A program made the translations under genes and the position numbers. Shown piece after piece: positions 8,087-49,045 of a stretch of 64,000 nt of DNA. The stretch is taken from the NCBI GenBank assembly GCA_020629035.1, contig JAHDEC010000010.1, forward strand, positions 1 through 64,000, written 5' to 3'. How positions within the stretch are numbered: position 1 is the first letter of the stretch; every line of letters begins with the position of its first letter. Origin of the DNA: Saprospiraceae bacterium. GTDB lineage: Bacteria > Bacteroidota > Bacteroidia > Chitinophagales > Saprospiraceae. The notes below the pieces were generated by a model that ran no database searches, was not told where the DNA came from, and saw only the letters and a program-made list of their open reading frames with translations.

Positions 8087-9931
8087 ATGAAGATTGAATC
8101 CAAATTGAGACTTACTCTACTCCTAGCTATTTGGTGTACAAGCATAGCTGGTGTACACGGACAAAAAGCCCTAATCATAGGTATTGATGGAATCCGCTCA
8201 GATGTTTTTGAATCTAGTCATACACCTGTGCTTGATGATTTAATTAGCGATGGGCTATATAGTCCGGATTGTCTCAACGATGATATAACCATTAGTGGGC
8301 CTGGTTGGTCAGCCATACTTTGTGGGGTGAGGTCTGAGAAACATGGTGTCACTGGCAATGACTTTTCTTCTAACAACTATGATGATTATCCGACCGTCAT
8401 TAAATACATCGAAGAAGCTAACCCTAACCTTAGCACCATTTCTATTTGTAATTGGAACCCAATTAATGATTTTATTGTCCAAAGCTATGCAGATACTAAA
8501 GAGAATGTTGGTTCAGATATAGATGTCGAGACTAGAGCTAGACACTATCTAGATGTCGAAGATCCAGACTTGCTCTTCTTACATTTTGACGAATGCGATG
8601 GTGCGGGTCATAGTACAGGATTTACGAGTGACTCTCCTGATTATGTCACTGCCATAGAAACCACTGATTCACTCATAGGCGAAGTCATTAATAGTTTACT
8701 GGCTCGACCAAACTACTCGGACGAAAACTGGGCAATTTTTATTACTTCTGATCATGGCGGGATAGGATTTAGTCATGGCGGCCAGACTATAGAAGAACGT
8801 AGGATTCCTTTTATCATTTCTGGAGATTCCATTGAAACTACGGTGATAGTAAAGGATAGTAGTCTTATATCTGTCAGCAATTGCTTGATGGATACAACTG
8901 AGTTGACATTTGATGGTGATAATGACTATGTAGAGTTCCCCCATATCCCAGATTATGATTTTGGACCAAATCAAGATTTTACAGTGGAGTGCAGAGTGAG
9001 AACATCTATGGCCGCGGATGTCGCTATAATGGGCAATAAAGATTGGGATAGTGGAAATAACAAAGGATTTGTATTCTCCTTTAAGTATCCAAGTGGACCT
9101 GAATGGAAAGTTAATATCGGCGACGGAAGTAACCGAGCTGATCTAAATATCGGTGCAAGTATTGCGGATAACGAATGGCACAGTCTTTCTGTCACCTTTG
9201 ATAGAGACGGTATGATGAAAATGTATCAAGAGGGTGTCTTTGTGGGCGAGACCTCTATTGCTTCTATCGGAGACATAGACAATAGCTCAGGTATATTCCT
9301 TGGCACAGATATCAACCAAGCATACGATTTTGGTGGATCTATTGCTGAAGTACGAATTTGGGATACAGTATTAGGAGCATCTTCAATCGCTGATTATGCT
9401 TGTAATGAAATAGATGCTCAGCATCCAAATTATAGCTCACTTATTGGATACTGGAAACTAGATGATGAGAATGCTACTGTGATTGAGGATTTTTCTACCA
9501 ATGATAATGATGGGACTATATCAGATGCAACATGGATGGCTACAGATTCTATATATGTGTATGATTACTCGGAGACTCCAAAACTTGTTGATCTTCCGGT
9601 CTCAGTACTCGGTCACCTCTGCATGGCTGCCGAGCCTTCTTGGGATATTGATGGACAAAGCTGGGTAGCCGATTGCACCTACGACTTATCGGCTTGCGTT
9701 AATCCAGGCTACATCACTTGGAATGGATCTATATCTGACAATTGGCATGATGCAAGCAATTGGGATAAAGGCAGAGTGCCCCTTGTTTGTGATAATGTTA
9801 TCATACCAGCAGATTTTTCTGTTAATATCCAAGCGGGTTCAACTGCAGTTTGCTACACCCTTGAAACAATAGGCAACGCCGAATTGTGTCAAGATGCCGG
9901 AGCAAACTTCGAAGTGCTCACTAATGACTAA
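8087..9931 (+). CDS. Alkaline-phosphatase-superfamily nucleotide pyrophosphatase/phosphodiesterase (ENPP-like) fused to a C-terminal LamG/concanavalin-like domain
   Basis: Signal peptide. IIGIDGIRSD, GPGWSAILCG, HFDECDGAGHSTGF and ITSDHGG are the metal-ligand motifs of type I phosphodiesterase/AP-superfamily enzymes. The C-terminal half (FTVECRVRTSMAADVAIMGNKDWDSGNNKGFVF...) is LamG-like. Confidence 0.65.
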   Translation: MKIESKLRLTLLLAIWCTSIAGVHGQKALIIGIDGIRSDVFESSHTPVLDDLISDGLYSPDCLNDDITISGPGWSAILCGVRSEKHGVTGNDFSSNNYDDYPTVIKYIEEANPNLSTISICNWNPINDFIVQSYADTKENVGSDIDVETRARHYLDVEDPDLLFLHFDECDGAGHSTGFTSDSPDYVTAIETTDSLIGEVINSLLARPNYSDENWAIFITSDHGGIGFSHGGQTIEERRIPFIISGDSIETTVIVKDSSLISVSNCLMDTTELTFDGDNDYVEFPHIPDYDFGPNQDFTVECRVRTSMAADVAIMGNKDWDSGNNKGFVFSFKYPSGPEWKVNIGDGSNRADLNIGASIADNEWHSLSVTFDRDGMMKMYQEGVFVGETSIASIGDIDNSSGIFLGTDINQAYDFGGSIAEVRIWDTVLGASSIADYACNEIDAQHPNYSSLIGYWKLDDENATVIEDFSTNDNDGTISDATWMATDSIYVYDYSETPKLVDLPVSVLGHLCMAAEPSWDIDGQSWVADCTYDLSACVNPGYITWNGSISDNWHDASNWDKGRVPLVCDNVIIPADFSVNIQAGSTAVCYTLETIGNAELCQDAGANFEVLTND

Positions 9932-10042: not shown

Positions 10043-11578
10043 CTATTCTTCTGAGTCTTCTGCTTCTTCCACTGCTGGTTCTTCTTTTTTCTGGACCAAG
10101 GCTGCAGGCAAACTCATACCTGATTGCTCCAAGAAGTCATTTAATTGGGGCATCATTCCGTAAAGACCTTGGACAAAGTTCCCAACTCCCTGACCGCTTC
10201 CATTATCATAAACTACTACCTTATCTATATCTAGCTCCTTAATAGCAGATGTTTGGATTTGCGCCAATTCCGTTAATTTGTCGATCATCAAGTAGCCTAT
10301 GGCACTTTGCGGGTCTCCCCCAGCCGCTTCTACTAATTTCTGAAAACCTTCTGCCTGCTTAGTTAACAAAGCTTCTTGTCCTTTTGCTTGCGCCATATAC
10401 TTAGCAAGTAAAGCATCTGCTTCCCCCTTAGCTGTTTCTCTCTGTCTTTCTGCTTCTGCCTGTGCAGCTATCACCGCTTTTTGCTTCTCGATATCAGCAT
10501 CTACCACTTCGTCTGCTTGCTTTTTTGCCAGCTCCATTTTTGCTCTAGCATCTTCAGATTCTTTCTCTGCAATATATGCTTCTTCTAGTGCTTTGGCTGC
10601 AGCCACTTTTCTCGCAGCTGTTGCTCTTCTCTCGGCTTCAGCGACTTCTATATCTCTGGTGGCATTCGAGGCTGCAATTTTAATACTGGCTGTATTTTTA
10701 CCTTCTGTTGCGATGGCGCGTGCATCCGCCTCTCCGATTTCTGCTTTAGAATTTGCTTCGGCTGTTCGCACTCTTTGTTTTTGTGTTGCTTCTGCTTCTC
10801 CGATATCGGCTAAACTGTTTGCATTTGCGATTTGAATTCTTTGCACCTGATTAGCTTCTGCTTCTCCAATTTCTGCTCGACTATTTGCATCAGCCACCTT
10901 AATTCGTTGCTCTTGCTGGGCTTCAGCTTGACCTATCGCCCCAGTTCGCTCTTCGTTCGATACTTTTACTTTTGCATCGTTGATTGCTTTAGCAGCCGCC
11001 TCCTTACCTAAAGCTTGGATATAGCCGGATTCATCTTGAATATCAGTCACGTTTACGTTGATCAGCTCTAGTCCGATTTTATGCAGCTCGTTTCCTACAT
11101 TCTGATAAACAGAATCTACAAATTTATCTCGATCAGTATTTAATTCTTCGATATCCATATTGGCAATCACCAATCTCATTTGACCCATTATTATATCGTG
11201 AGCCAAAGAACGAATGGCAGGCTGCTCCAAGCCCAAAAGTCGCTCAGCTGCAGCAATCATCAGATGTGGCTTGTTACTTACACCCACAGTGAACTGCGCA
11301 GGCACTGAAACTCGAATATTCTGCTTTGACAAGGCATCCTGAAGGTTTACATCGATGCTTATTGGAGTTAGATCGAGGTACCGATAATCTTGAATAACAG
11401 GCCATACAAAAGTAGCACCACCGGCATAACATTTGGCTGATTGTTCACCTCCAGTCTTCCCATAGACAACCAGGATTTTATCGGATGGACATCGCTTATA
11501 GCGACTGATGAAAAATAATAGTAATAAGATAGCGAGAAACAGCACAAAGCCCACTACCAATAGCAATTGAGTACCCAT
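10043..11578 (-). CDS. Flotillin / SPFH (band 7) domain protein, YqiK-like
   Basis: N-terminal TM anchor, SPFH-like core, then long A/E-rich heptad repeats (AEANSKAEIGEAEA...) typical of bacterial flotillins. Confidence 0.8.
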   Translation of the reverse strand: MGTQLLLVVGFVLFLAILLLLFFISRYKRCPSDKILVVYGKTGGEQSAKCYAGGATFVWPVIQDYRYLDLTPISIDVNLQDALSKQNIRVSVPAQFTVGVSNKPHLMIAAAERLLGLEQPAIRSLAHDIIMGQMRLVIANMDIEELNTDRDKFVDSVYQNVGNELHKIGLELINVNVTDIQDESGYIQALGKEAAAKAINDAKVKVSNEERTGAIGQAEAQQEQRIKVADANSRAEIGEAEANQVQRIQIANANSLADIGEAEATQKQRVRTAEANSKAEIGEADARAIATEGKNTASIKIAASNATRDIEVAEAERRATAARKVAAAKALEEAYIAEKESEDARAKMELAKKQADEVVDADIEKQKAVIAAQAEAERQRETAKGEADALLAKYMAQAKGQEALLTKQAEGFQKLVEAAGGDPQSAIGYLMIDKLTELAQIQTSAIKELDIDKVVVYDNGSGQGVGNFVQGLYGMMPQLNDFLEQSGMSLPAALVQKKEEPAVEEAEDSEE

Positions 11579-12130: not shown

Positions 12131-12880
12131 AGGTTGATTGGATTAAATGTTGAACCTTTCTAAAGTATTAAGAATTTCTTAACATCTATAATACTAACGA
12201 AATACTTTTGAAATAAAGTTCCGTTAATCCATATCTATACATTGCCACTGAATCAAATTATTATTCATTTCCGAGTTATTTTTTCATACTGAATGCTAAG
12301 TGTGACATTACTAAAATGCAATCAAACAATATTGATTTACACATTAAAAATAATACATATTTATATTTAAAATATTTATATATTACTCATTAATAAATTT
12401 TTACACATTTAAAATATATTGAATATTATATATTCTTAATATATAAATAGAATCAACACTAAATAATAAAATAAGTGGGTTTACGAACAATTCTTCCGCT
12501 TGCTTTTTCCAATGTTATGGATTTAGAAACTGCGTTTAAATCTTTTAAAGCTTCGTTTGCTAAAGCTGAACCCTGTAAAATTTTTACGACTAAAGCAGGC
12601 TACAACACTGATAACTAAGCGGTGCTGTCCATGTTAGAAACTCAAGGCTTAGCTTTTTAAATAGCAAAAAAATTCTACTCACTTTGCAATTAGTCAATCT
12701 TAAAAAATACTATCTTTAAATTATGCAAAGTCTTTATACTTACAACTGAGCTAAAAGCATTTTAGCTTAAAAAATAATAAGTATAAATAAACTCATATAA
12801 AGTATAAAAATTAGCAGGCTTTGTATGCAAACGTTATATCCTCATAGACCTTTTAATTAAGTTTAATTCAAATTAAGTTA

Positions 12881-38491: not shown

Positions 38492-39269
38492 GCATTTAGA
38501 GCAACGATCTACCGAAGAACTAACGCGCATCATTAATGATGAGGATAAAACGGTCGCATTTGCCGTAGAAAAATCCATCCATCAAATCAATAAAAGCATA
38601 GACGCTATTTTTAATCAAATGAAAAAAGGTGGCCGTTTGTTTTACATTGGTGCAGGAACTTCTGGGCGATTAGGCATACTAGATGCCTCTGAATGCCCTC
38701 CTACTTTTGGCGTGGATGATGATTGGGTTATCGGTTTAATTTCGGGTGGAGATAAAGCCATTCGGAAGGCTCAAGAATTTGCCGAAGATGATACTAATCA
38801 GGCCTGGATTGATTTACAAGCATATGCCATTTCTCCGAATGATATTGTCTTGGGACTCGCCGCTTCCGGCACAACGCCCTATGTTGTTTCGGGACTGCAA
38901 ACAGCTAGAGAAAACCAGGTTCCTACCGTCTGTATCACTTGTAATACAAACACGCCTATTGCAGCACAGGCAGATTACCCTATCGAGGTTATTGTCGGTC
39001 CAGAAGTAGTAACCGGCAGCACTCGAATGAAATCAGGAACAGCACAAAAATTGGTCTTGAATATGATATCGACCACGGTTATGATCAAGCTAGGCAGAGT
39101 GGTAGATAATCGGATGGTGGATATGAAACTTAGCAATGATAAACTGGTGGATAGAGGTACTAAGATGGTCATGGAACAAACAAAATTAGATTACAAAACT
39201 GCTCAAAAATTTCTACTGAAAGAAGGCAGTGTGCGAAAAGCCATAGCTTTTTTTAACACTAGATTGTAA
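38454..39269 (+). CDS. murQ: N-acetylmuramic acid 6-phosphate etherase
   Basis: SIS-domain motifs RIINDEDKTVAFAVEKS, GRLFYIGAGTSGRLG, ECPPTFGV. Confidence 0.85.
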   Translation: MINKITEQASNHRHLEQRSTEELTRIINDEDKTVAFAVEKSIHQINKSIDAIFNQMKKGGRLFYIGAGTSGRLGILDASECPPTFGVDDDWVIGLISGGDKAIRKAQEFAEDDTNQAWIDLQAYAISPNDIVLGLAASGTTPYVVSGLQTARENQVPTVCITCNTNTPIAAQADYPIEVIVGPEVVTGSTRMKSGTAQKLVLNMISTTVMIKLGRVVDNRMVDMKLSNDKLVDRGTKMVMEQTKLDYKTAQKFLLKEGSVRKAIAFFNTRL

Positions 39270-39368
39270 ATAGTATAGGTGTTTGTGGTTATGAGCAATA
39301 CTTGACTTACGGGTCATGATATCCAGCGTTTCTGTGAGGAACGAAGAGATATGATCTGATATATGTTG

Positions 39369-40547
39369 CTAGGCACTGGCATTTTCGAGTTGTATGAATT
39401 TAATTTTCATTAGTCTTTGCTTACTTATTGATTTAGCACATACTCCTCTGCAAATGGAAGATAAAATCTCAATGTTACTTTTTAATTGAAGAGAGTCAAG
39501 TACTTGTTGTTGGTACTCTTTGTTTATCTCAATTTTATATACGCAGTCGGAAATAAGGATTTTTCCTTTTCTTATGTACCCGATTTTTCTGTAACAATTC
39601 CTTCCAACCCTTCCTAAAAGAATGTTCCCTTTGTTTGCATATGCTTCTTGTCTTATTTCAGCTTTTCTACGATCTCCATTTATATTAGTTAGACCATAAT
39701 CTAAGCTGGTTGTATGAACAAATTTAGATTTTAGTGATTTGAGCTCTTTATGAGAAAAAGATCCTCTTCTAATTTCCGCCCCTAAGTCATTTAGAGAAAC
39801 TAGTTTTTTATTTTGATTATTTTGAAAATGCCAATATTTGAAATCGAATGTCTCATGAAGTAAATTACTTTGTATTTTCAAGTTTTTGACTTTTGCTTTT
39901 GGGTCAAACTTACAAAGTGTTACCATGTAGTTTTTTACTGGTTCTATTTTCTTGATTATTAGTATAGTTGTTTTTGCTTCAGTTGTTTTGAACGACCTTT
40001 CAGGTATGTCAATTATTTTAATTAGTTTATAATTTTTCAGAATGGCTTCTCTGAAGCCCTTGTAGGTATGTGAAGCAGAAATGGAATCTGAAACTATTAT
40101 TCCAAGTATACCATTTTTTTTGATCGAGCTTAAACCATATGCAGCAAATAATATTTCTGTATTAAAATTGTTCAGGTTTAGGTAATTAAGAATTTTTATT
40201 TCACTCAGGAGCTTTTTATAATTAGAATCAAATTTTAATTTTATATAAGGAGGATTGCTTATAGCGGCATCTAATTTTGTTATTTGTAGTGATTGAAATA
40301 TATTTTCTTTCCTAAGATCAATTTGATAAAGTTTGGAGTCGTTAATTAAAATGTTCTTTAGCTTATTTTGAAGATTTATGTCAATTCCTATGACATTTGA
40401 TGTCTTATAGACATTTTGAAATTGTTTACTTAAAGCTCCATCTCCAATTCCTAAATCTAGCACATAGGTAGGTTCGATAAGCGGTAGTGCCTGAATTAAT
40501 ATTTTGCTTATACTATCAGATGTATAATGTGCTCCATTGTTTATCAT
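39369..40547 (-). CDS. Gamma-class amino-methyltransferase (M.TaqI/HemK-like; probably N6-adenine DNA MTase) with C-terminal target-recognition-like region
   Basis: Motif I VLDLGIGDGAL lies before motif IV NPPY (about nt 40245-40256). The C-terminal roughly 200 aa are basic. It is the last gene of the AT-rich 4-gene cassette and its start overlaps the upstream gene's stop. Confidence 0.6.
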   Translation of the reverse strand: MINNGAHYTSDSISKILIQALPLIEPTYVLDLGIGDGALSKQFQNVYKTSNVIGIDINLQNKLKNILINDSKLYQIDLRKENIFQSLQITKLDAAISNPPYIKLKFDSNYKKLLSEIKILNYLNLNNFNTEILFAAYGLSSIKKNGILGIIVSDSISASHTYKGFREAILKNYKLIKIIDIPERSFKTTEAKTTILIIKKIEPVKNYMVTLCKFDPKAKVKNLKIQSNLLHETFDFKYWHFQNNQNKKLVSLNDLGAEIRRGSFSHKELKSLKSKFVHTTSLDYGLTNINGDRRKAEIRQEAYANKGNILLGRVGRNCYRKIGYIRKGKILISDCVYKIEINKEYQQQVLDSLQLKSNIEILSSICRGVCAKSISKQRLMKIKFIQLENASA

Positions 40548-41500
40548 TATATAAGATTAGTTAAGTGATAAATGTATGTTTTGCCAGACCCTTGGCTGCC
40601 AAATTTCTTTTCCAAAGGGAAATCATAAACAATATAAGTATTATTCAAAGCCGCATATAGTGCCATTCCTAATAAATGAGGTCTGGGTCCAATTGGACAT
40701 AAGTAAATGTCATATTGAGATTTCCAATTTAATTCTAATTCTTTTAAAGTATTTATTATGTCAAATGGAGAAGTCGCTAAGCAATTTTTTGCATTGTCGA
40801 ATACATCATACCTGAGTAATGTATCCGAGTTCAATTTAAGAGCAATTTGATCCCAACCTGGTTTGTAAGAGGGAAAACCAAAAATTGGGTAAATTTCTTT
40901 AGGGTTGGTAGATTCATTTATGGCAACAAATCTTTTCTTGTCAAAACCAAGTGATACGATTAGTAATTTGTCTTTTTTCGATGCTTTTTTTATAAACCCA
41001 GGCACTGGTGACGAACTACCTTTAAACATTTCAATTAAGTCGAAAGGTTCTTCAGAATCTTTTAAGTTTGGTAGATTTTTTCTTTCATACTTCTTAGGCT
41101 GTGTATAGCTAACAAAAAAAAGTTTGGTTTTAATTTCCTTTACGAACACACTAATTGAATAGAAAATCAAAGCTTGTCTCATAGAAGTGATGTCTAAGAG
41201 AACTGATTTAGTTGTTAAGTTTAGTGAATTTAAAAGTTTGAAGTATTGCGGAATTATAGGTATGGAATTTAAACTTTTATCAATGATCTCTCCGTTTTGT
41301 TTTAATGTATATGAAAAAGACTGGTAATTGTCTTTTGACGATAGGAGTAAGATTAATCCTTTATAACCCTTTAGTTTTGTTAAAAGTGCTGACGATCTAT
41401 GATCTTCTTCTTGCAATGAATCAGTTATCACAATATCAACATTTGAGCTGAATATTGCACGATTATGATCAGATAGTATATAGGATTCTTGATACATCAT
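40547..41500 (-). CDS. Hypothetical protein of the island; possible PD-(D/E)xK-type nuclease
   Basis: No clear family. VLLDITSM...(20 aa)...VFVKEIKTK gives a hhhD...hh(E)xK arrangement. Translationally coupled on both sides (ATGA overlap). Confidence 0.3.
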   Translation of the reverse strand: MMYQESYILSDHNRAIFSSNVDIVITDSLQEEDHRSSALLTKLKGYKGLILLLSSKDNYQSFSYTLKQNGEIIDKSLNSIPIIPQYFKLLNSLNLTTKSVLLDITSMRQALIFYSISVFVKEIKTKLFFVSYTQPKKYERKNLPNLKDSEEPFDLIEMFKGSSSPVPGFIKKASKKDKLLIVSLGFDKKRFVAINESTNPKEIYPIFGFPSYKPGWDQIALKLNSDTLLRYDVFDNAKNCLATSPFDIINTLKELELNWKSQYDIYLCPIGPRPHLLGMALYAALNNTYIVYDFPLEKKFGSQGSGKTYIYHLTNLI

Positions 41501-43422
41501 TGATGGTCTGAGAATAGATTTGGAGTTTCTGAGATTGATCGAAAAAGATACTTAGTGACTATGGATTCAATTTGTTTTTCAGACCCAATAAGTAAGCCTT
41601 CTATATCTTGGGCACTTATTTTAAGTTTTCTTTTTCTTCTATGGGATATACCAAAATAAGGGCAATAAATATGATTGATGTGAAAATCAAAAAATTCTAT
41701 CCCATCTTTGGTTTTGCTTGACTCTCCTTGTTCAAGAATTTTGTTTTTTAAGGCTTCTTGGAAAAGAATAAAGGCTTCTTCCTTATTTTGTTTTAAAGTA
41801 TTGTATTCAGTTGTGAAATGGTTTTGTTCTACTTCTCCTAATGTCGATGATGGAGAGATATGGTGAGATCTAAAAATTTTACCTAATGCTAAGGTGAAAT
41901 ACTTTAATCTGAATCCATGAGGTTCATATGATTCAATTTCATCTATTTTGTTCTTGCTTACTTTATGGGCTGCATCGGACTGTTCAATTTGGGTTAGTTG
42001 CCTAGGTTTTTTAAAGTCTAATCTGTCACTAGAATAGAACAGGGCATTATTGAATGATTCTTCAACTAATTCTAAAAAACTTCTTATTACACCTGATGAC
42101 AAGGCAGAGAAAGTTTGAATTCCAGAATATAGTTTCGCGGCATTTATCTCATGGCCTAAAAGAAACTCAGTGTGGTATAAAGTATTGCCAATTAAATCTT
42201 TATAGCGTTGATTTTGATTTTCAATCATTTCCTTAAGTTCTAAGGCAGGAATTATATTTGATTTTGTTCGCAACAAAAGACATATTGAATTTCTAATTAT
42301 TAATGGATCTAATGAGGAGAAAAAACCCTTTAACGATTCCAAGGTAGTTTTATCATAATTAAGTTTTCGAGATTGAATTTCAAGAACTTGATATAATTGT
42401 TTTTTTAAGTTATTAAACTGATCTATCGACAAAACTTTGAATTCTTCACCTCTTGGATATTTTTTAAGGTACCATTTCAAAGATGTATGGTCTTCGGATT
42501 TTGATAGGATGTTTTGCTCTTCTAGATAAATACTAAGCCGTTTGTCACAAATCTTTACTGCTAAATTTATAAATTCTTGAATGTTGGAGTATTCTGCAGT
42601 GTCAGTTGTCAAAGAGACATAATCGTCTTTTTTGCGAATTTCTTCTTGAGAAGCAACCTTATAGGATTTGATGCCATTTGTAATTACTGCGTAATCAAAT
42701 ACAAGGTTATGATTACTTTGCTTAAGTAGAGTATTTAAAGTTATCTGTTGATACTTAAGAAGCTTTTCAAATTCATCTATATATATATGAAAAGTTAAAT
42801 GAGAAAAGTATTCGATTTTTTTTAATTCTTCTACTAGATCAGTTATTATTATTCCAGGACCTGTACCGTTAGGAGAATCATTTAATGTAGAATTTGAGAA
42901 TGTTTCTAAATCAATTAACTTCTTCTGTAATACATTTTTTAGTTCCGCAAGAGAGTTGATATTGTGAGTTGAAAAACGGTAAGCTAACTTTTTGTTAAAA
43001 GGTTCAATGTTTTCAATTGTCATTAAACCTTCTTTTATTGCCTCTTGAATAAAGTCAATAATTTCAAGAGTTATCACACAATTAAAATATAGATTAAATA
43101 AGCCTGACCAAACTTTCTCAGAAGTCTCTTTCCCTGTAAAGCTTGATATAAATCTTGAATCAACTAGGTAGTAAAATCCGATATGTTTCTCACTGCCAAT
43201 TAAGTTTTTTATAGTTGGCTCAGATTGATAGGAATATTTTTTTTCTTGCCACGAGTTGCACTTGTAAAACATGGTTTTACCAGTACCTCTACTGCCTTCA
43301 AAAATTAATGGCTTTTCGGATATCTTTGCTCTAAATGGTTCGTCGACAAAATATTTCCACACATTGTCTCCCATCTGTTCAGTTCGCAACTTTGAAAACG
43401 GGTTATATGGTTTTAAATTCAT
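41497..43422 (-). CDS. Large P-loop NTPase (Walker A/B; AAA/ORC- or STAND-like) of the island
   Basis: Walker A IFEGSRGTGKTMF (about nt 43271-43312). Walker B HIYIDEFEKL. Long alpha-helical C-terminal region. The likely start is the internal ATG at 43422, directly after the upstream stop; the ORF track extends to 43491. Confidence 0.6.
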   Translation of the reverse strand: MNLKPYNPFSKLRTEQMGDNVWKYFVDEPFRAKISEKPLIFEGSRGTGKTMFYKCNSWQEKKYSYQSEPTIKNLIGSEKHIGFYYLVDSRFISSFTGKETSEKVWSGLFNLYFNCVITLEIIDFIQEAIKEGLMTIENIEPFNKKLAYRFSTHNINSLAELKNVLQKKLIDLETFSNSTLNDSPNGTGPGIIITDLVEELKKIEYFSHLTFHIYIDEFEKLLKYQQITLNTLLKQSNHNLVFDYAVITNGIKSYKVASQEEIRKKDDYVSLTTDTAEYSNIQEFINLAVKICDKRLSIYLEEQNILSKSEDHTSLKWYLKKYPRGEEFKVLSIDQFNNLKKQLYQVLEIQSRKLNYDKTTLESLKGFFSSLDPLIIRNSICLLLRTKSNIIPALELKEMIENQNQRYKDLIGNTLYHTEFLLGHEINAAKLYSGIQTFSALSSGVIRSFLELVEESFNNALFYSSDRLDFKKPRQLTQIEQSDAAHKVSKNKIDEIESYEPHGFRLKYFTLALGKIFRSHHISPSSTLGEVEQNHFTTEYNTLKQNKEEAFILFQEALKNKILEQGESSKTKDGIEFFDFHINHIYCPYFGISHRRKRKLKISAQDIEGLLIGSEKQIESIVTKYLFRSISETPNLFSDHQ

Positions 43423-44348
43423 TGGGTCGTTTTTCTTCTTATTAAATGCTTCCAATCCGGAGACTTTTTGTGAAATATTGGTAACGACCAATTTGGAATT
43501 CTATCGCTAAATATCACAGCAAAGTCAAGTTTTTTAAAACCTCTGAAACTTACTCCTCGTGTTTTTTGTATTTCATTAAAATAACTTACAGCTTTCTCCC
43601 TTTCATTAGAATCTTTTCTCCAAATTGCGGTGTTTTCTTCATGAAATATTCTGTTTTCGTTAGTAAGCTCTTCTACAACAACCACATTTATGTTTTCCAG
43701 AGATCCTGCTTGCTTTAATTTTTTGACACTATCAATGTATCCAATTAATGCAAGATAAGTTATGCTGAAATCATTGCTTTTTGCATATTCTTTTATGAAT
43801 TCTATGTTCTGTGATTTCCAAAAATTCTTAAGTTGCATTCCAGATCCAATGCAATCGTCAACAATTATTAATTGCTCATAGTTTTGAATTATATCTTGAT
43901 TGATATTATGTAAAAAATAAACATTTTCTTTTGGTACTGATAGTTTATGAACTAAATCACCTGTCACCAAATTTCCACTTTCATATGGCTTGTCAGAATC
44001 TAATAAGGGGATAAAACAAGTTTTGTTCTTTAATTCGGTAATAGTCCCATTGTAATAGTTTCGAGGAAGTATGTGATCTTTAAAACTATTTAGAAAACTT
44101 TTAATTTGACTTGACCAGACTAGTTCATATATGCCATATTCTAGAAGTTTGATCAAATCCTTTTTTGAATAGAAAATTGTGTTTAGCAATATTTTAAGGA
44201 GATAGTATTTGCCTTCATCATCATTATCGAAATTGAAATTTATCCACTCTTCAATTTCCTTGAATGAAAGGAAATCACATTTTGACCTAACAAGAGCTTT
44301 AAGCACTGGTAGTTTAGCTCTATAGTATTGTGAATGATTTATTTCCAT
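43419..44348 (-). CDS. Phosphoribosyltransferase (PRTase)-domain protein, first gene of the island cassette
   Basis: Central PRPP-binding-type motif LIIVDDCIGSGMQL (about nt 43830-43871). Four hydrophobic residues, an acidic pair and a small-residue loop, as in type I PRTases. An N-terminal roughly 150 aa region of unknown function. Confidence 0.5.
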   Translation of the reverse strand: MEINHSQYYRAKLPVLKALVRSKCDFLSFKEIEEWINFNFDNDDEGKYYLLKILLNTIFYSKKDLIKLLEYGIYELVWSSQIKSFLNSFKDHILPRNYYNGTITELKNKTCFIPLLDSDKPYESGNLVTGDLVHKLSVPKENVYFLHNINQDIIQNYEQLIIVDDCIGSGMQLKNFWKSQNIEFIKEYAKSNDFSITYLALIGYIDSVKKLKQAGSLENINVVVVEELTNENRIFHEENTAIWRKDSNEREKAVSYFNEIQKTRGVSFRGFKKLDFAVIFSDRIPNWSLPIFHKKSPDWKHLIRRKTTQ

Positions 44349-44570
44349 TTAGTTATTTTCATTTTTGCTTGTGCCTAACAATAAATAAAGATCACTTAAA
44401 CACTTTGAATTTGTAGAGAATTAAGAAGCTTTTCTAGCACCCTATCTTCCCATTAGTTAGAGATGATAAATATCTTTTTGAGTGCTAAGTAAATCAAACT
44501 AAACATTTTTCAGCTTACTCATCTTTGGAAAAGCTACCAAATAGTTTAATTAGTATATTAATATAGGTAT

Positions 44571-45167
44571 TTAACCTCTATTCTTCTCAAGCAGAATCAT
44601 CATCATTAAGCCTAATAAGATGCGATCATCATCATCCGAATCCATAGGGCCTTCTTTCGTAATTTCAAAATTTCTACCAAAAAAAGAAGGCAGTTTTCGC
44701 AATCTAACAATTTCCTTATCTTTTGTATTTTTTACGATATATGATGGATTAAATAAATAGCCGGTAAGCATGCTTATAATCGGGATTTGCCCCAAAATAG
44801 AGTCTCCAACTTTTGCCCAAGCATTTTCCTCGCTTACTGTGTATTGTATATTCTGATTTTCGTCTAGAATAGTATACTGGGCTTTCCAAATTGACTTCCA
44901 ACCTTTTCTTGCAATTTTCCCAAATTCTTTACCATCCTTATCAAAGAATGCATAAGCCGCAGAAAAATCCAACCACTTATCGGCTTTGATCCGATATAAT
45001 TGTTCGGTTTTTGATTGATCACTGAAAATGAGAATGTCTTCCTTAAGCTTAAATAGTTTTTGTTTTACGTAAGCAATAATCTTTCCTTTAGAGTCGGTTG
45101 CTGTAAAGTCATTCGATATAGAGGAAATTTTAAATTGAAGGGAGATAGGAAAAGTAATGTTCTGCAT
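44571..45167 (-). CDS. LURP-one-related (LOR)/Tubby C-terminal-like family protein (DUF567)
   Basis: About 198 aa. YVKQKLFKLKEDILIFSDQ...YRIK.. pattern typical of bacterial LOR/scramblase-like proteins. Confidence 0.5.
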   Translation of the reverse strand: MQNITFPISLQFKISSISNDFTATDSKGKIIAYVKQKLFKLKEDILIFSDQSKTEQLYRIKADKWLDFSAAYAFFDKDGKEFGKIARKGWKSIWKAQYTILDENQNIQYTVSEENAWAKVGDSILGQIPIISMLTGYLFNPSYIVKNTKDKEIVRLRKLPSFFGRNFEITKEGPMDSDDDDRILLGLMMMILLEKNRG

Positions 45168-46831: not shown

Positions 46832-47416
46832 ATGTTTTTAGAACCCAGTTTTAGAGGCCAACGCAGCGGTTGGATCGAAGTCATTTGTGGCTCTATGTTT
46901 TCGGGTAAAACTGAGGAACTAATCAGAAGACTTAAAAGGGCTAAGATAGCTAATCAAAAAGTAGCAATCTTTAAACCGGCTAAAGATGTTAGATATGACG
47001 AGCAAGCCGTCGTTTCGCACGACGATAATGCCATCCAGTCGCTTACCCTTGAAAAAAGTAAAGAAATCTTAGCACATATTCATGATGTAAATGTAGTAGG
47101 TATCGATGAAGCCCAATTTTTCGATGAGCACCTAACTGCTGTTTGCCAGCAACTAGCGATTAGAGGAATTCGAGTAATTATTGCCGGACTGGATATGGAT
47201 TTTCGAGGAAATCCTTTCGGTCCAATACCGCAACTCCTAGCAGTAGCTGAGTATATTACTAAAGTTCATGCAATTTGTCCACATTGTGGAAGTCTAGCTA
47301 CCCATTCCTACAGACTGAGTGAAGAAAACGAAACAGTTTTGCTTGGTGAAAAGGATAAATATGAGCCAAGATGTCGCGTTTGTTATAGTATGGGGAACAT
47401 ATTAAATTTATCCTAA
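46832..47416 (+). CDS. tdk: Thymidine kinase
   Basis: P-loop [18 protein letters not shown]-terminal zinc ribbon CPHCG...CRVCY. Confidence 0.9.
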
Positions 47417-47527: not shown

Positions 47528-49045
47528 ATGCAAGAAGCTACTCAAATACGATCAGCGCTCATTTCTGTTTTTCACAAGGATGGATTAGAAGCTGTGATTC
47601 CAGGACTAATCGAAAATAAAGTAAAAGTTTACTCTACTGGAGGTACTTATGCTTTCTTAAGTAATTACGATGTAGACTTACATAAAGTCGAAGACCTAAC
47701 AGGATATCCATCTATTCTAGGCGGTCGTGTAAAAACCTTACATCCTAAAGTATTTGGTGGTATTCTAGCGAAACGTGAAGAGGGACATTTAGCAGAGCTC
47801 AGTGAATACACCATTCCAACCTTTGATTTGGTGATTGTGGATCTCTACCCTTTCGAAGAAACTGTAAAGAGTACTAATGATGAGACAGCCATTATTGAGA
47901 AAATAGACATTGGAGGCATTGCCTTAATTAGAGCGGCGGCCAAAAACTTTAAAGATGTGGTAGTTATACCATCTAAAGATCAGTATCCTGCTTTAAAAGA
48001 TTTACTCGACAATGAAGCGAAAAGCAACATTGAACAAAGAAAAAAATTAGCGGCTTCGGCCTTTAGTATATCATCTAATTATGACAACCATATCTCAGCA
48101 TATCTTGCTGAAGAAAAGAAATTCAACATAAATCTAGCCAGTTCTACCTCGCTGCGATATGGAGAAAATCCTCATCAGCAAGGAATCTTTTTTGGCGAAC
48201 TAGCACCAATGTTTAGACAAATTTCTGGCAAATCTTTATCCTTTAATAATTTAGTGGATGTCGATGCGGCAATCCAGCTTATGAAGGAGTTTAAAGATAA
48301 TCCAATCACTTGTTGTGTATTAAAACACACCAATGCATGTGGAGTGGCAACGAGGTCTACCATGATAGAAGCTTGGAAAGACGCACTAGCCGGCGATCCT
48401 ACTTCGGCGTTTGGTGGCGTAATTATTTTCAATGCTGAGATAAATGCAGAAACAGCGGAAGCCATTAACGAGATTTTCTATGAGGTACTTATTGCTCCTT
48501 CTTTTTCAGAAGAGGCTCAAGCTATATTGACTAAAAAGAAAAAGCGGGTTTTACTGGAGCTAAATCGCTATCCATCAGCCGATAAACAATTTAAATCCAT
48601 TTTGGATGGAGTAATTGTACAGGATACAGATGCTCAGGTGGAAGATAAATCCTCCTTCGAAAATAAAACATATAAAGAAGCAACACCGGACCAATTAACG
48701 GCCCTAGCATTTGCTAATAAGTGCGTAAAGCACTTGAAGTCAAATACTATAGTATTAATTAAAAACAACCAACTAATCGGCATGGGTTGTGGACAAACAT
48801 CCAGAGTGGATGCATGTAAACAAGCCATTGAAAAAGCACACAAATTTGGTTTTGATACCGAAGGATCGGTTATGGCATCGGATGCCTTCTTTCCTTTTCC
48901 TGATTGCGTGCAGTTAGCTGGAGAAGCTGGCGTGAAAGCTATCGTGCAGCCTGGTGGCTCGATTAATGACCAAATGAGCATCGATGCATGTAATGATCTA
49001 AATATCGCAATGGTATTTACAGGGGTAAGGCATTTTAAACATTAA
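47528..49045 (+). CDS. purH: Bifunctional AICAR transformylase / IMP cyclohydrolase
   Basis: MGS-like N-terminus ALISVFHKDGL...KVYSTGGT. AICARFT core. About 505 aa. Confidence 0.9.
   Translation: MQEATQIRSALISVFHKDGLEAVIPGLIENKVKVYSTGGTYAFLSNYDVDLHKVEDLTGYPSILGGRVKTLHPKVFGGILAKREEGHLAELSEYTIPTFDLVIVDLYPFEETVKSTNDETAIIEKIDIGGIALIRAAAKNFKDVVVIPSKDQYPALKDLLDNEAKSNIEQRKKLAASAFSISSNYDNHISAYLAEEKKFNINLASSTSLRYGENPHQQGIFFGELAPMFRQISGKSLSFNNLVDVDAAIQLMKEFKDNPITCCVLKHTNACGVATRSTMIEAWKDALAGDPTSAFGGVIIFNAEINAETAEAINEIFYEVLIAPSFSEEAQAILTKKKKRVLLELNRYPSADKQFKSILDGVIVQDTDAQVEDKSSFENKTYKEATPDQLTALAFANKCVKHLKSNTIVLIKNNQLIGMGCGQTSRVDACKQAIEKAHKFGFDTEGSVMASDAFFPFPDCVQLAGEAGVKAIVQPGGSINDQMSIDACNDLNIAMVFTGVRHFKH

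Follow-up and report, generated by a model that had tools for sequence, protein, structure and literature searches.

Within a 64,000-nucleotide (nt) stretch of the Saprospiraceae contig JAHDEC010000010.1, referred to here in its full length as the window, we analysed an AT-rich island at positions 39270-44570 that holds four tightly packed genes, all on the minus strand. From its 5' end, the island encodes a PRTase-CE family phosphoribosyltransferase (PRTase), a predicted effector of 309 amino acids (gene 1, g1; 43419-44348); an ORC-CDC6-like AAA+ ATPase of 641 amino acids, a core component predicted to serve as a DNA-sensing switch and scaffold (g2; 41497-43422); a stand-alone tandem CARF/SAVED-like Rossmannoid protein of 317 amino acids, a second core component and predicted nucleotide-ligand sensor or regulator (g3; 40547-41500); and a protein of 392 amino acids with the signatures of a gamma-class N6-adenine DNA methyltransferase (MTase), the predicted self-marking component (g4; 39369-40547). 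The length of g2 is counted from its ATG; a mechanical open reading frame (ORF) lister goes on to a TTG at 43491. The four genes form a single mobile system, for which we propose an immune-type function.

A low-GC island between murQ and a LOR-family gene

Every stop codon inside the operon overlaps the start codon of the next gene. Read directly from the sequence, the g1/g2 and g2/g3 junctions are ATGA overlaps and the g3/g4 junction is TAATG, a 1-nt overlap. An earlier reading of this locus, made from the letters alone (the original prediction), had described start/stop overlaps, which hold at all junctions; it had placed g1 and g2 end to end, where they overlap, and had read ATGA at g3/g4. 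The sole sizeable intergenic gap on the 5' side is a non-coding, AT-rich leader of 222 nt upstream of g1 (44349-44570, minus strand), presumed to be the promoter region of the operon; a scan for sigma-70 consensus elements was uninformative. At the distal edge, a spacer of 99 nt (39270-39368) separates the g4 stop from that of the convergent murQ, and a terminator scan, itself uninformative, found no intrinsic terminator there.

The AT-richness claimed for the island was borne out by windowed GC content, which was 0.304 for the island and 0.370 +/- 0.012 in 481 other windows of 5.3 kb (z = -5.5), the lowest of which reached 0.3365. Each island gene had a GC content of 0.296-0.310, compared with a minimum of 0.342 among the 43 other genes of the window, and GC at third codon positions was 0.24-0.26 compared with 0.323 +/- 0.032. 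The low-GC, tightly packed four-gene island is therefore real and not a chance effect. It is flanked by murQ, which ends at 39269, and by a LOR/Tubby-C-like gene at 44571-45167. An imperfect direct repeat brackets it on the plus strand, with the left copy inside the 3' end of murQ (39206-39238) and the right copy inside the LOR-family gene (44667-44702). Its two copies agree exactly over colinear stretches of 11 and 12 nt, with an indel of 3 nt. No shuffle out of 3000 and no control pair out of 1563 drawn from real sequence matched this, and the repeat may be the trace of an insertion. The LOR/Tubby-C-like gene has the lowest GC content of the 43 non-island genes (0.342) and may have come with the island. 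No homologue of it adjoins the cassette at any other locus.

Predicted activities of the four proteins

The g1 product aligned with the whole of the Pfam family PRTase-CE (PF24390; 142.6 bits against a cut-off of 27, profile positions 1-253 of 253), with an N-terminal helical domain (residues ~1-108) followed by a type I PRTase Rossmann core. Both hallmarks of the PRTase fold are present, namely a Rossmann-like core and a phosphoribosyl pyrophosphate (PRPP)-binding loop (hydrophobic strand, DD, x-x-[ST]-G). The loop is intact (LIIVDDCIGSGMQ), and its residues D164, D165, G168, S169, G170 and Q172 were conserved in a motif survey of 30-36 homologues, in keeping with the PRTase call of the original prediction. 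In PADLOC, g1 matched the retron PRTase_III-A models over nearly its full length (1.1e-17) and, judged by profile, it is nearer to retron type III-A PRTase effectors than to any housekeeping PRTase. A ComF-like PRTase was rejected, as g1 matched neither ComF nor Pribosyltran in Pfam. The PRTase fold nearest to g1 is that of uracil PRTase; we did not use this likeness to assign a pyrimidine substrate, as another effector PRTase shows it too. By analogy with known PRTase effectors, g1 is predicted to consume PRPP.

The original prediction had likened g1 to ShosT. ShosTA and PsyrTA likewise employ a PRTase-domain toxin in anti-phage defence, and ShosT has been shown to bind PRPP and to be toxic (PMC11961720). 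The analogy is a loose one, apt insofar as it concerns a PRTase effector in defence, but g1 matches the retron III-A models and not ShosT. It has no pyrophosphatase (PPase) domain, no DprA-like antitoxin accompanies it, and PADLOC returned no match to ShosT, PsyrT or ShosA.

The g2 product matched Pfam PF24389 over residues 7-602 and profile positions 1-571 of 571 (2.2e-78; 264.9 bits against a cut-off of 27), and its homologues carry the name 'ORC-CDC6 family AAA ATPase' in NCBI and UniRef. It has a Walker A motif, GSRGTGKT (G43-x-R45-G46-x-G48-K49-T50), and a Walker B motif, IDEFE (D216 and E217), whose residues were conserved in at least 90% of 36 homologues, which upholds the earlier P-loop NTPase call. 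The C-terminus carries a conserved basic motif, ISHRRKRK, in which I592, S593 and K599 were seen to be conserved. An HNH-like motif in the same region (DFHINHIYCP...SHRRKRK) was considered and rejected, since proteobacterial homologues do not conserve its His and Cys residues. No PADLOC model matched g2, and single-sequence and profile searches of g1 and g2 against solved structures returned nothing significant, leaving g2 with no sequence-detectable relative of known structure.

The original prediction had tentatively read g3 as a PD-(D/E)xK-like nuclease. This proved wrong. The protein matched 13 PADLOC CARF6 models (best 3.5e-34), it has a CARF Rossmannoid fold, and its two lobes can be aligned with Can1 and SAVED domains; by profile and fold, g3 is a tandem CARF/SAVED-like sensor. 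The hhhD...ExK signature was not conserved among 30-36 homologues, in which D103 and D293 were the sole conserved acidic residues and no conserved E-x-K was found. The CARF fold and CARF6 profile matches are shared with CARF/SAVED signalling proteins such as the ancillary effectors of type III CRISPR systems and Cap4/Cap5 of CBASS. In contrast to those systems, g3 has no fused effector domain, and the conserved unit has no Cas10 or CD-NTase, no CRISPR array and no cas genes. We predict that g3 acts as a nucleotide-ligand sensor or regulator.

In g4, motif X is followed by motif I (DLGIGDG), motif IV (NPPY) and a C-terminal half resembling a target recognition domain. It matched N6_Mtase (4.2e-12) and Eco57I (2.4e-10) in Pfam and, over its full length, the PADLOC model MTase_II PDLC03285 (1.2e-49). 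T9, the motif I residues D31 and G35, and N98, P99 and P100 of NPP(Y) were conserved in the motif survey of homologues, and its sequence matches in the PDB were M.BseCI and BsaXI. Motif order and profiles identify g4 as a gamma-class N6-adenine DNA MTase, as the original prediction had proposed, and it is predicted to methylate DNA. A HemK/PrmC identity was rejected (32.7 bits in NCBIfam against a cut-off of 199), so that, with ComF excluded for g1, neither housekeeping assignment fits. No cognate restriction endonuclease for g4 was found: g3 is CARF-like, and the flanks of the cassette hold no recurrent nuclease.

Conservation, mobility and linked thymidylate genes

We retrieved 35 reference-genome loci with an alignment of g2 homologues and judged co-occurrence of the four genes by profile searches. 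All four genes were present at every locus uncut by a contig end, save two spirochaete loci (L012 and L026), and the cassette has representatives in no fewer than five phyla of bacteria as well as on resistance plasmids of Klebsiella. Complete loci of Bacteroidota, Bacillota (Clostridia) and one deltaproteobacterium have the order PRTase-ATPase-CARF-MTase, tightly packed. In Marinobacter, Aeromonas, Campylobacterales, Sulfurovum and the Klebsiella plasmids the MTase gene has moved upstream to give MTase-PRTase-ATPase-CARF. Gene overlaps or tight packing were conserved among loci. Matrices of pairwise identity for the four proteins were correlated with one another (r = 0.88-0.97), with the g4-type MTase the most divergent and least congruent of the four. 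Since the four genes are found together and evolve in concert across phyla, they are one system and not two modules, and the single, functionally linked operon of the original prediction stands. The conserved unit contains no nuclease and no nucleotide cyclase.

A variant locus, L086 (3189-7564), was informative about which parts can be exchanged. It encodes an ORC-CDC6-like ATPase with TIR_2 fused at its N-terminus, a g3 homologue (E = 8e-27) and an unrelated N6_N4 MTase, and it has no PRTase; its neighbours are ThsB_TIR, TIR_2 and LD_cluster2 genes. Here the g3 homologue has kept its place beside the ATPase even though PRTase and MTase have both been exchanged. These swaps indicate that the ATPase and the CARF-like protein are the core, with the effector (PRTase or TIR) and the MTase exchangeable, and the TIR-ATPase fusion argues for direct physical coupling of ATPase and effector. 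L086 is a defence-style effector swap and the strongest single item for an immune role.

Two other loci carry additional genes. At the Terrimonas locus L007 (12914-15627), two extra genes lie between the CARF-like gene and the MTase gene. One encodes a protein of 578 amino acids that has a zinc ribbon and a weak Walker A region of the ORC-CDC6-like type, and the other a protein of 326 amino acids without any family match. At the spirochaete locus L012 (1101-2231 and 6663-11095), an HNH protein precedes the PRTase-ATPase-CARF triad, and a DUF4007 protein and an AAA ATPase of 1183 amino acids follow it; these flanking genes could belong to a different DNA-modification or defence module, perhaps Ssp/Dnd-like.

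Flanking genes differed at essentially every locus, and the cassette was AT-richer than its flanks at 19 of 19 loci, by a mean of 7.6 GC points. The closest relative, L042 (73% identity), resembles the window within the cassette only. The cassette was found on 154 plasmids, 135 of them conjugative and 129 from Klebsiella, including more than 100 conjugative IncFII plasmids of Klebsiella pneumoniae on which it adjoins repA. The plasmid order is MTase-PRTase-ATPase-CARF, as in NZ_CP064231.1 (L040; 76485-81557), and RefSeq annotates the plasmid cassette as three hypothetical proteins and an N-6 DNA methylase. In Acinetobacter the cassette abuts tRNA-Val. Because of the differing flanks, the lower GC content, the plasmid carriage and the tRNA-Val neighbour, we conclude that the cassette is horizontally acquired and mobile, as had been claimed for the island. 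Flanking ORFs at other loci matched AbiE, putAbiC, a type I restriction endonuclease, NsnAB, a DRT reverse transcriptase, the PADLOC candidates PDC-S01, PDC-S04, PDC-S30 and PDC-S66, serine recombinases, TniQ, integrases and, once, Cas1. With the effector swap at L086, these defence genes agree with the defence-like context and architecture that had been proposed.

Four Escherichia coli genomes also had the cassette; two or more of these are labelled as transconjugants from conjugation assays. IMG/VR gave no matches that would indicate viral carriage. Two records named 'Acinetobacter phage' were rejected as viral, since tdcB, cstA and tRNA-Val point to a bacterial chromosome; in one of them (L087; CAKLQF020000018.1, 'Acinetobacter phage MD-2021a'), the cassette lies amid tdcB, a pirin-like gene, cstA and tRNA-Val.

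The metagenomes provided some further information on the insertion site. None of 43 murQ relatives (43-67% identity) was accompanied by the cassette, but these showed no shared downstream synteny and are too distant to represent an empty site. Contigs with an identical LOR gene all hold the island. Two metagenome contigs with an identical murQ (L001 and L002) end at about 39339, ~30 nt short of the MTase stop, and a cassette contig (L038) begins there. Strain polymorphism was rejected as the explanation of these breaks, as the other border has no matching break; the break near 39339 reflects a branching of the assembly graph that is confined to one border of the island.

At 10 of the 39 loci other than the window, from four phyla, a gene of the dUMP/dTMP pathway overlapped the cassette, was adjacent to it or lay within ~1.6 kb. 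Four unrelated families were represented: ThyA at six loci, ThyX at two, trimeric dUTPase at two and dimeric dUTPase_2 at one. In Bacteroidota, ThyA is encoded directly upstream of the cassette (L003, L004, L006, L011 and L031, ~8260-9060; L036, 4471-5265). In Syntrophomonas, a ThyX gene (L013, 14077-14760) overlaps the MTase end, with a trimeric dUTPase gene (L013, 14827-15255) beside it, and in Ruminococcus a ThyX gene lies 1.5 kb upstream (L019, 6824-7447). A trimeric dUTPase gene begins 4 nt past the MTase gene in a deltaproteobacterium (L030, 14380-14871), and a gene for a dimeric, all-alpha dUTPase_2 overlaps the PRTase start by 4 nt in Acinetobacter (L087, 3365-4003).

A rough binomial estimate of the probability of this linkage by chance was P ~1e-16, or ~1e-7 with the ThyA loci counted as one event, and ThyA was the sole neighbour family to recur at five or more of the 35 loci within ~4.5 kb. 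Five of the six ThyA loci, when compared, had no similarity outside thyA and the cassette, even between two Mucilaginibacter genomes, which implies that thyA travels with the cassette. The linked ThyA copies look canonical (Pfam E = 6e-130, 264 amino acids). The Thy/Dut linkage suggests that what is perturbed or buffered is the pyrimidine deoxynucleotide node (dUMP to dTMP). The window cassette has no Thy/Dut gene in its operon. Thymidine kinase and purH, two nucleotide-metabolism genes, lie 2.5-3 kb from it (46832-47416 and 47528-49045); the thymidine kinase gene is 2.5 kb away on the other strand. Given the Thy/dUTPase linkage elsewhere, the proximity of these two genes may or may not be a coincidence.

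Proposed function and relation to known systems

We propose, with moderate confidence, that the island is a mobile four-gene immune-type system in which methylation is coupled to abortive infection by a PRPP-consuming effector. In this scheme, the MTase would mark host DNA. The ATPase, like ORC/Cdc6-clade defence ATPases such as BrxC, would engage DNA and switch on at foreign, unmarked DNA or at another infection cue, and the activated ATPase would release the PRTase. By analogy with the retron-Eco11 effector, the PRTase would then consume PRPP, nucleotide synthesis would collapse, and phage replication would stop at the price of host growth (abortive infection or growth arrest). The CARF-like protein may bind a nucleotide-derived ligand and tune or gate the switch, and the Thy/Dut accessory genes may mark the pyrimidine deoxynucleotide node as affected or buffered. 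The analogy for the effector step comes from retron-Eco11, whose PRTase depletes PRPP and brings about abortive infection (PMC12746101), and from NADR, a validated anti-phage system in which a retron-III-like PRTase is paired with a NADAR protein (PMC13092281).

Several points weigh against this proposal. Homology, architecture and context are alone established, and everything mechanistic is inferred from them. DNA sensing by g2 is predicted solely from clade membership and the basic C-terminal motif, and we found no experimentally characterised precedent in the literature for an abortive response to unmethylated DNA. Because the two spirochaete loci carry the PRTase, ATPase and CARF-like genes without this MTase, methylation may not be obligatory. 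No conserved ligand-making enzyme (Cas10, CD-NTase or mCpol) was found within ~4.5 kb of the cassette at the 35 loci, and ligand binding by g3 consequently stays a prediction. Simple PRPP depletion leaves the role of ThyA, ThyX and dUTPase unexplained. Lastly, the neighbours of the cassette in the window are housekeeping genes and not a defence island.

We also considered a more specific and speculative version of this scheme, which is rather unlikely to hold in full. Here, DNA methylation would gate a metabolic, not a nucleolytic, response: the ATPase would read DNA methylation or foreignness and, together with a CARF/SAVED sensor that works without a cyclase, would control a swappable enzyme acting at ribose C1'. 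The ligand of the CARF sensor would be either a metabolite of the dU/dT pool or a product that this enzyme itself makes from PRPP or NAD, and the dUMP-to-dTMP node would be part of a sensing or self-protection circuit.

The PRTase-centred scheme has its closest parallels in retron type III-A and NADR. With the former, g1 shares the PRTase_III-A profile match, the catalytic DD and the GSG PRPP loop, and the NADR PRTase resembles uracil PRTase by HHpred, as the g1 fold does (PMC13092281). In contrast to a retron, the cassette has no reverse transcriptase domain in its four genes and no non-coding RNA of the multicopy single-stranded DNA (msDNA) type, as Rfam gave no match anywhere in the 64-kb window; unlike NADR, it has no NADAR partner. 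It differs from both in coupling the PRTase to an ORC/Cdc6-like ATPase, a CARF-like protein and an MTase, and in that g1 belongs to its own Pfam family, PRTase-CE.

BREX provides a parallel for the other half of the cassette, as there too a large AAA+ ATPase of the ORC/Cdc6 clade occurs together with a gamma-class N6-adenine MTase, and a classical restriction nuclease is missing. BREX is presumed to mark self DNA by methylation (PMC12839542), and g4 gave weak partial matches to PglX (5.5e-8). However, the cassette lacks PglZ, BrxA, BrxB and BrxL, and BREX has no counterpart of the PRTase or the CARF-like protein. In addition, g2 is half the size, belongs to family PF24389 and had no BrxC match in PADLOC, while g4 is a small type-II-like enzyme compared to the ~1200-amino-acid PglX. 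A partial match of the g4 catalytic domain to mad2 of MADS (PADLOC 3.9e-16; 17.7 bits in NCBIfam against a cut-off of 720) was not accompanied by the eight-gene mad1-mad8 set. Thoeris and other TIR systems share the logic of a sensor that controls an enzyme destroying or converting an essential ribose-nucleotide metabolite, and the L086 variant has a TIR at the effector position and Thoeris-like neighbours; however, the window cassette has no TIR, and Thoeris lacks the ATPase-CARF-MTase set.

The cassette as a whole matched no named system in PADLOC 2.0. We found no experimental work on it and no named description of it in the literature searched, in which the term 'PRTase-CE' gave no papers. 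The original prediction had called the system undescribed. That is accurate with respect to PADLOC 2.0 and to RefSeq, in which three of the four genes are hypothetical, but not with respect to its parts, as the component families are already catalogued as Pfam PF24389 and PF24390, under NCBI names and in the CARF6 profiles. The adjacent Pfam accessions suggest that someone had already noticed the PRTase-ATPase pairing, and the family names may stem from comparative genomics of nucleotide-centric conflict systems or from a classification of CARF proteins. If this is a defence system, it would be a methylation-coupled system without a nuclease, a further case of interchange between PRTase and TIR as metabolite-depleting effectors, and a CARF/SAVED sensor working without CRISPR or CBASS cyclases, which raises the question of what it binds. 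That four unrelated dUMP/dTMP enzymes have been captured repeatedly suggests that immunity is specifically connected with the thymidylate pool, and carriage on Klebsiella IncFII plasmids may have consequences for phage therapy and for the ecology of plasmids in a host of clinical importance.

Among the rival explanations, the one that survives best, and which we still judge unlikely, is a signalling cascade with Thoeris-like logic, in which the PRTase (or TIR) makes a ribose-linked second messenger from PRPP (or NAD+) that g3 senses in order to activate the ATPase or another partner as the true effector. TIR domains produce nucleotide signals in Thoeris. A cascade of this kind would account for a CARF-like sensor at the core of a system that has no linked cyclase, for the mutual exchange of PRTase and TIR, both of which act at ribose C1', and for the ThsB_TIR and LD_cluster2 (SLOG-like) genes that adjoin L086. 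It is nonetheless pure inference: the system has no recognisable killing domain besides the PRTase or TIR, g3 carries no fused effector, and the PRTase effectors studied to date act through PRPP consumption or toxicity.

The abundance of the cassette on conjugative Klebsiella IncFII plasmids, directly beside repA, raises a different explanation, namely a toxin-antitoxin-like addiction or epigenetic module. The MTase or an ATPase-CARF complex would restrain a toxic PRTase, loss of the element would kill the cell, and the module may also shield plasmid DNA from restriction. The compact, translationally coupled layout fits such a module, PRTase toxins occur in the toxin-antitoxin systems ShosTA and PsyrTA, and an MTase kept without a nuclease recalls addiction of the restriction-modification type. 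Set against this, most copies in reference genomes are chromosomal with no obvious mobile-element backbone, four genes with a sensor ATPase and a CARF-like protein are more elaborate than known addiction modules, and a TIR effector swap in a Thoeris-rich island is typical of immunity. We regard addiction as quite improbable as the main function, with the qualification that addiction and defence are not mutually exclusive.

Less probable still is a nucleotide or DNA-modification pathway, in which the PRTase, the MTase and the Thy/Dut enzymes would make and install a modified pyrimidine, or keep a uracil-free, specially methylated genome, under regulation by the ATPase and the CARF-like protein. 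Known routes to hypermodified pyrimidines begin with enzymes resembling thymidylate synthase, and recent work has validated a defence system that contains a thymidylate synthase. The recurrence of four unrelated dUMP/dTMP enzyme families in operons with the cassette and the nearness of the g1 fold to uracil PRTase would fit such a pathway. However, only about a quarter of the loci have a Thy/Dut gene, the window operon among those without one, and the ThyA copies look canonical. Replacement of the PRTase by a TIR makes no sense for a biosynthetic step, and likeness to uracil PRTase is generic among effector PRTases.

The two adjacent modules that the original prediction had offered as an alternative, an M.TaqI-like type II restriction-modification pair (g3 and g4) beside a PRTase and NTPase pair (g1 and g2), are refuted: the resemblance of g4 to type II/IIG gamma-class MTases, the low congruence and high divergence of the MTase and its shift of position in Proteobacteria would suit such a pair, but g3 is CARF-like with no conserved nuclease motif and keeps to the ATPase when the MTase family is replaced, and the four genes co-evolve and are found together at every complete locus except two.

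Outside the cassette and its neighbours, two compositional features of the window were recorded. An AT-rich gap of 750 nt (12131-12880; GC content ~0.28) separates a minus-strand ORF on its upstream side from a plus-strand ORF downstream. Nearby, a minus-strand ORF of 511 amino acids (10043-11578) lies in the most GC-rich kilobase of the window (0.449), which has a strong AT skew of -0.38.

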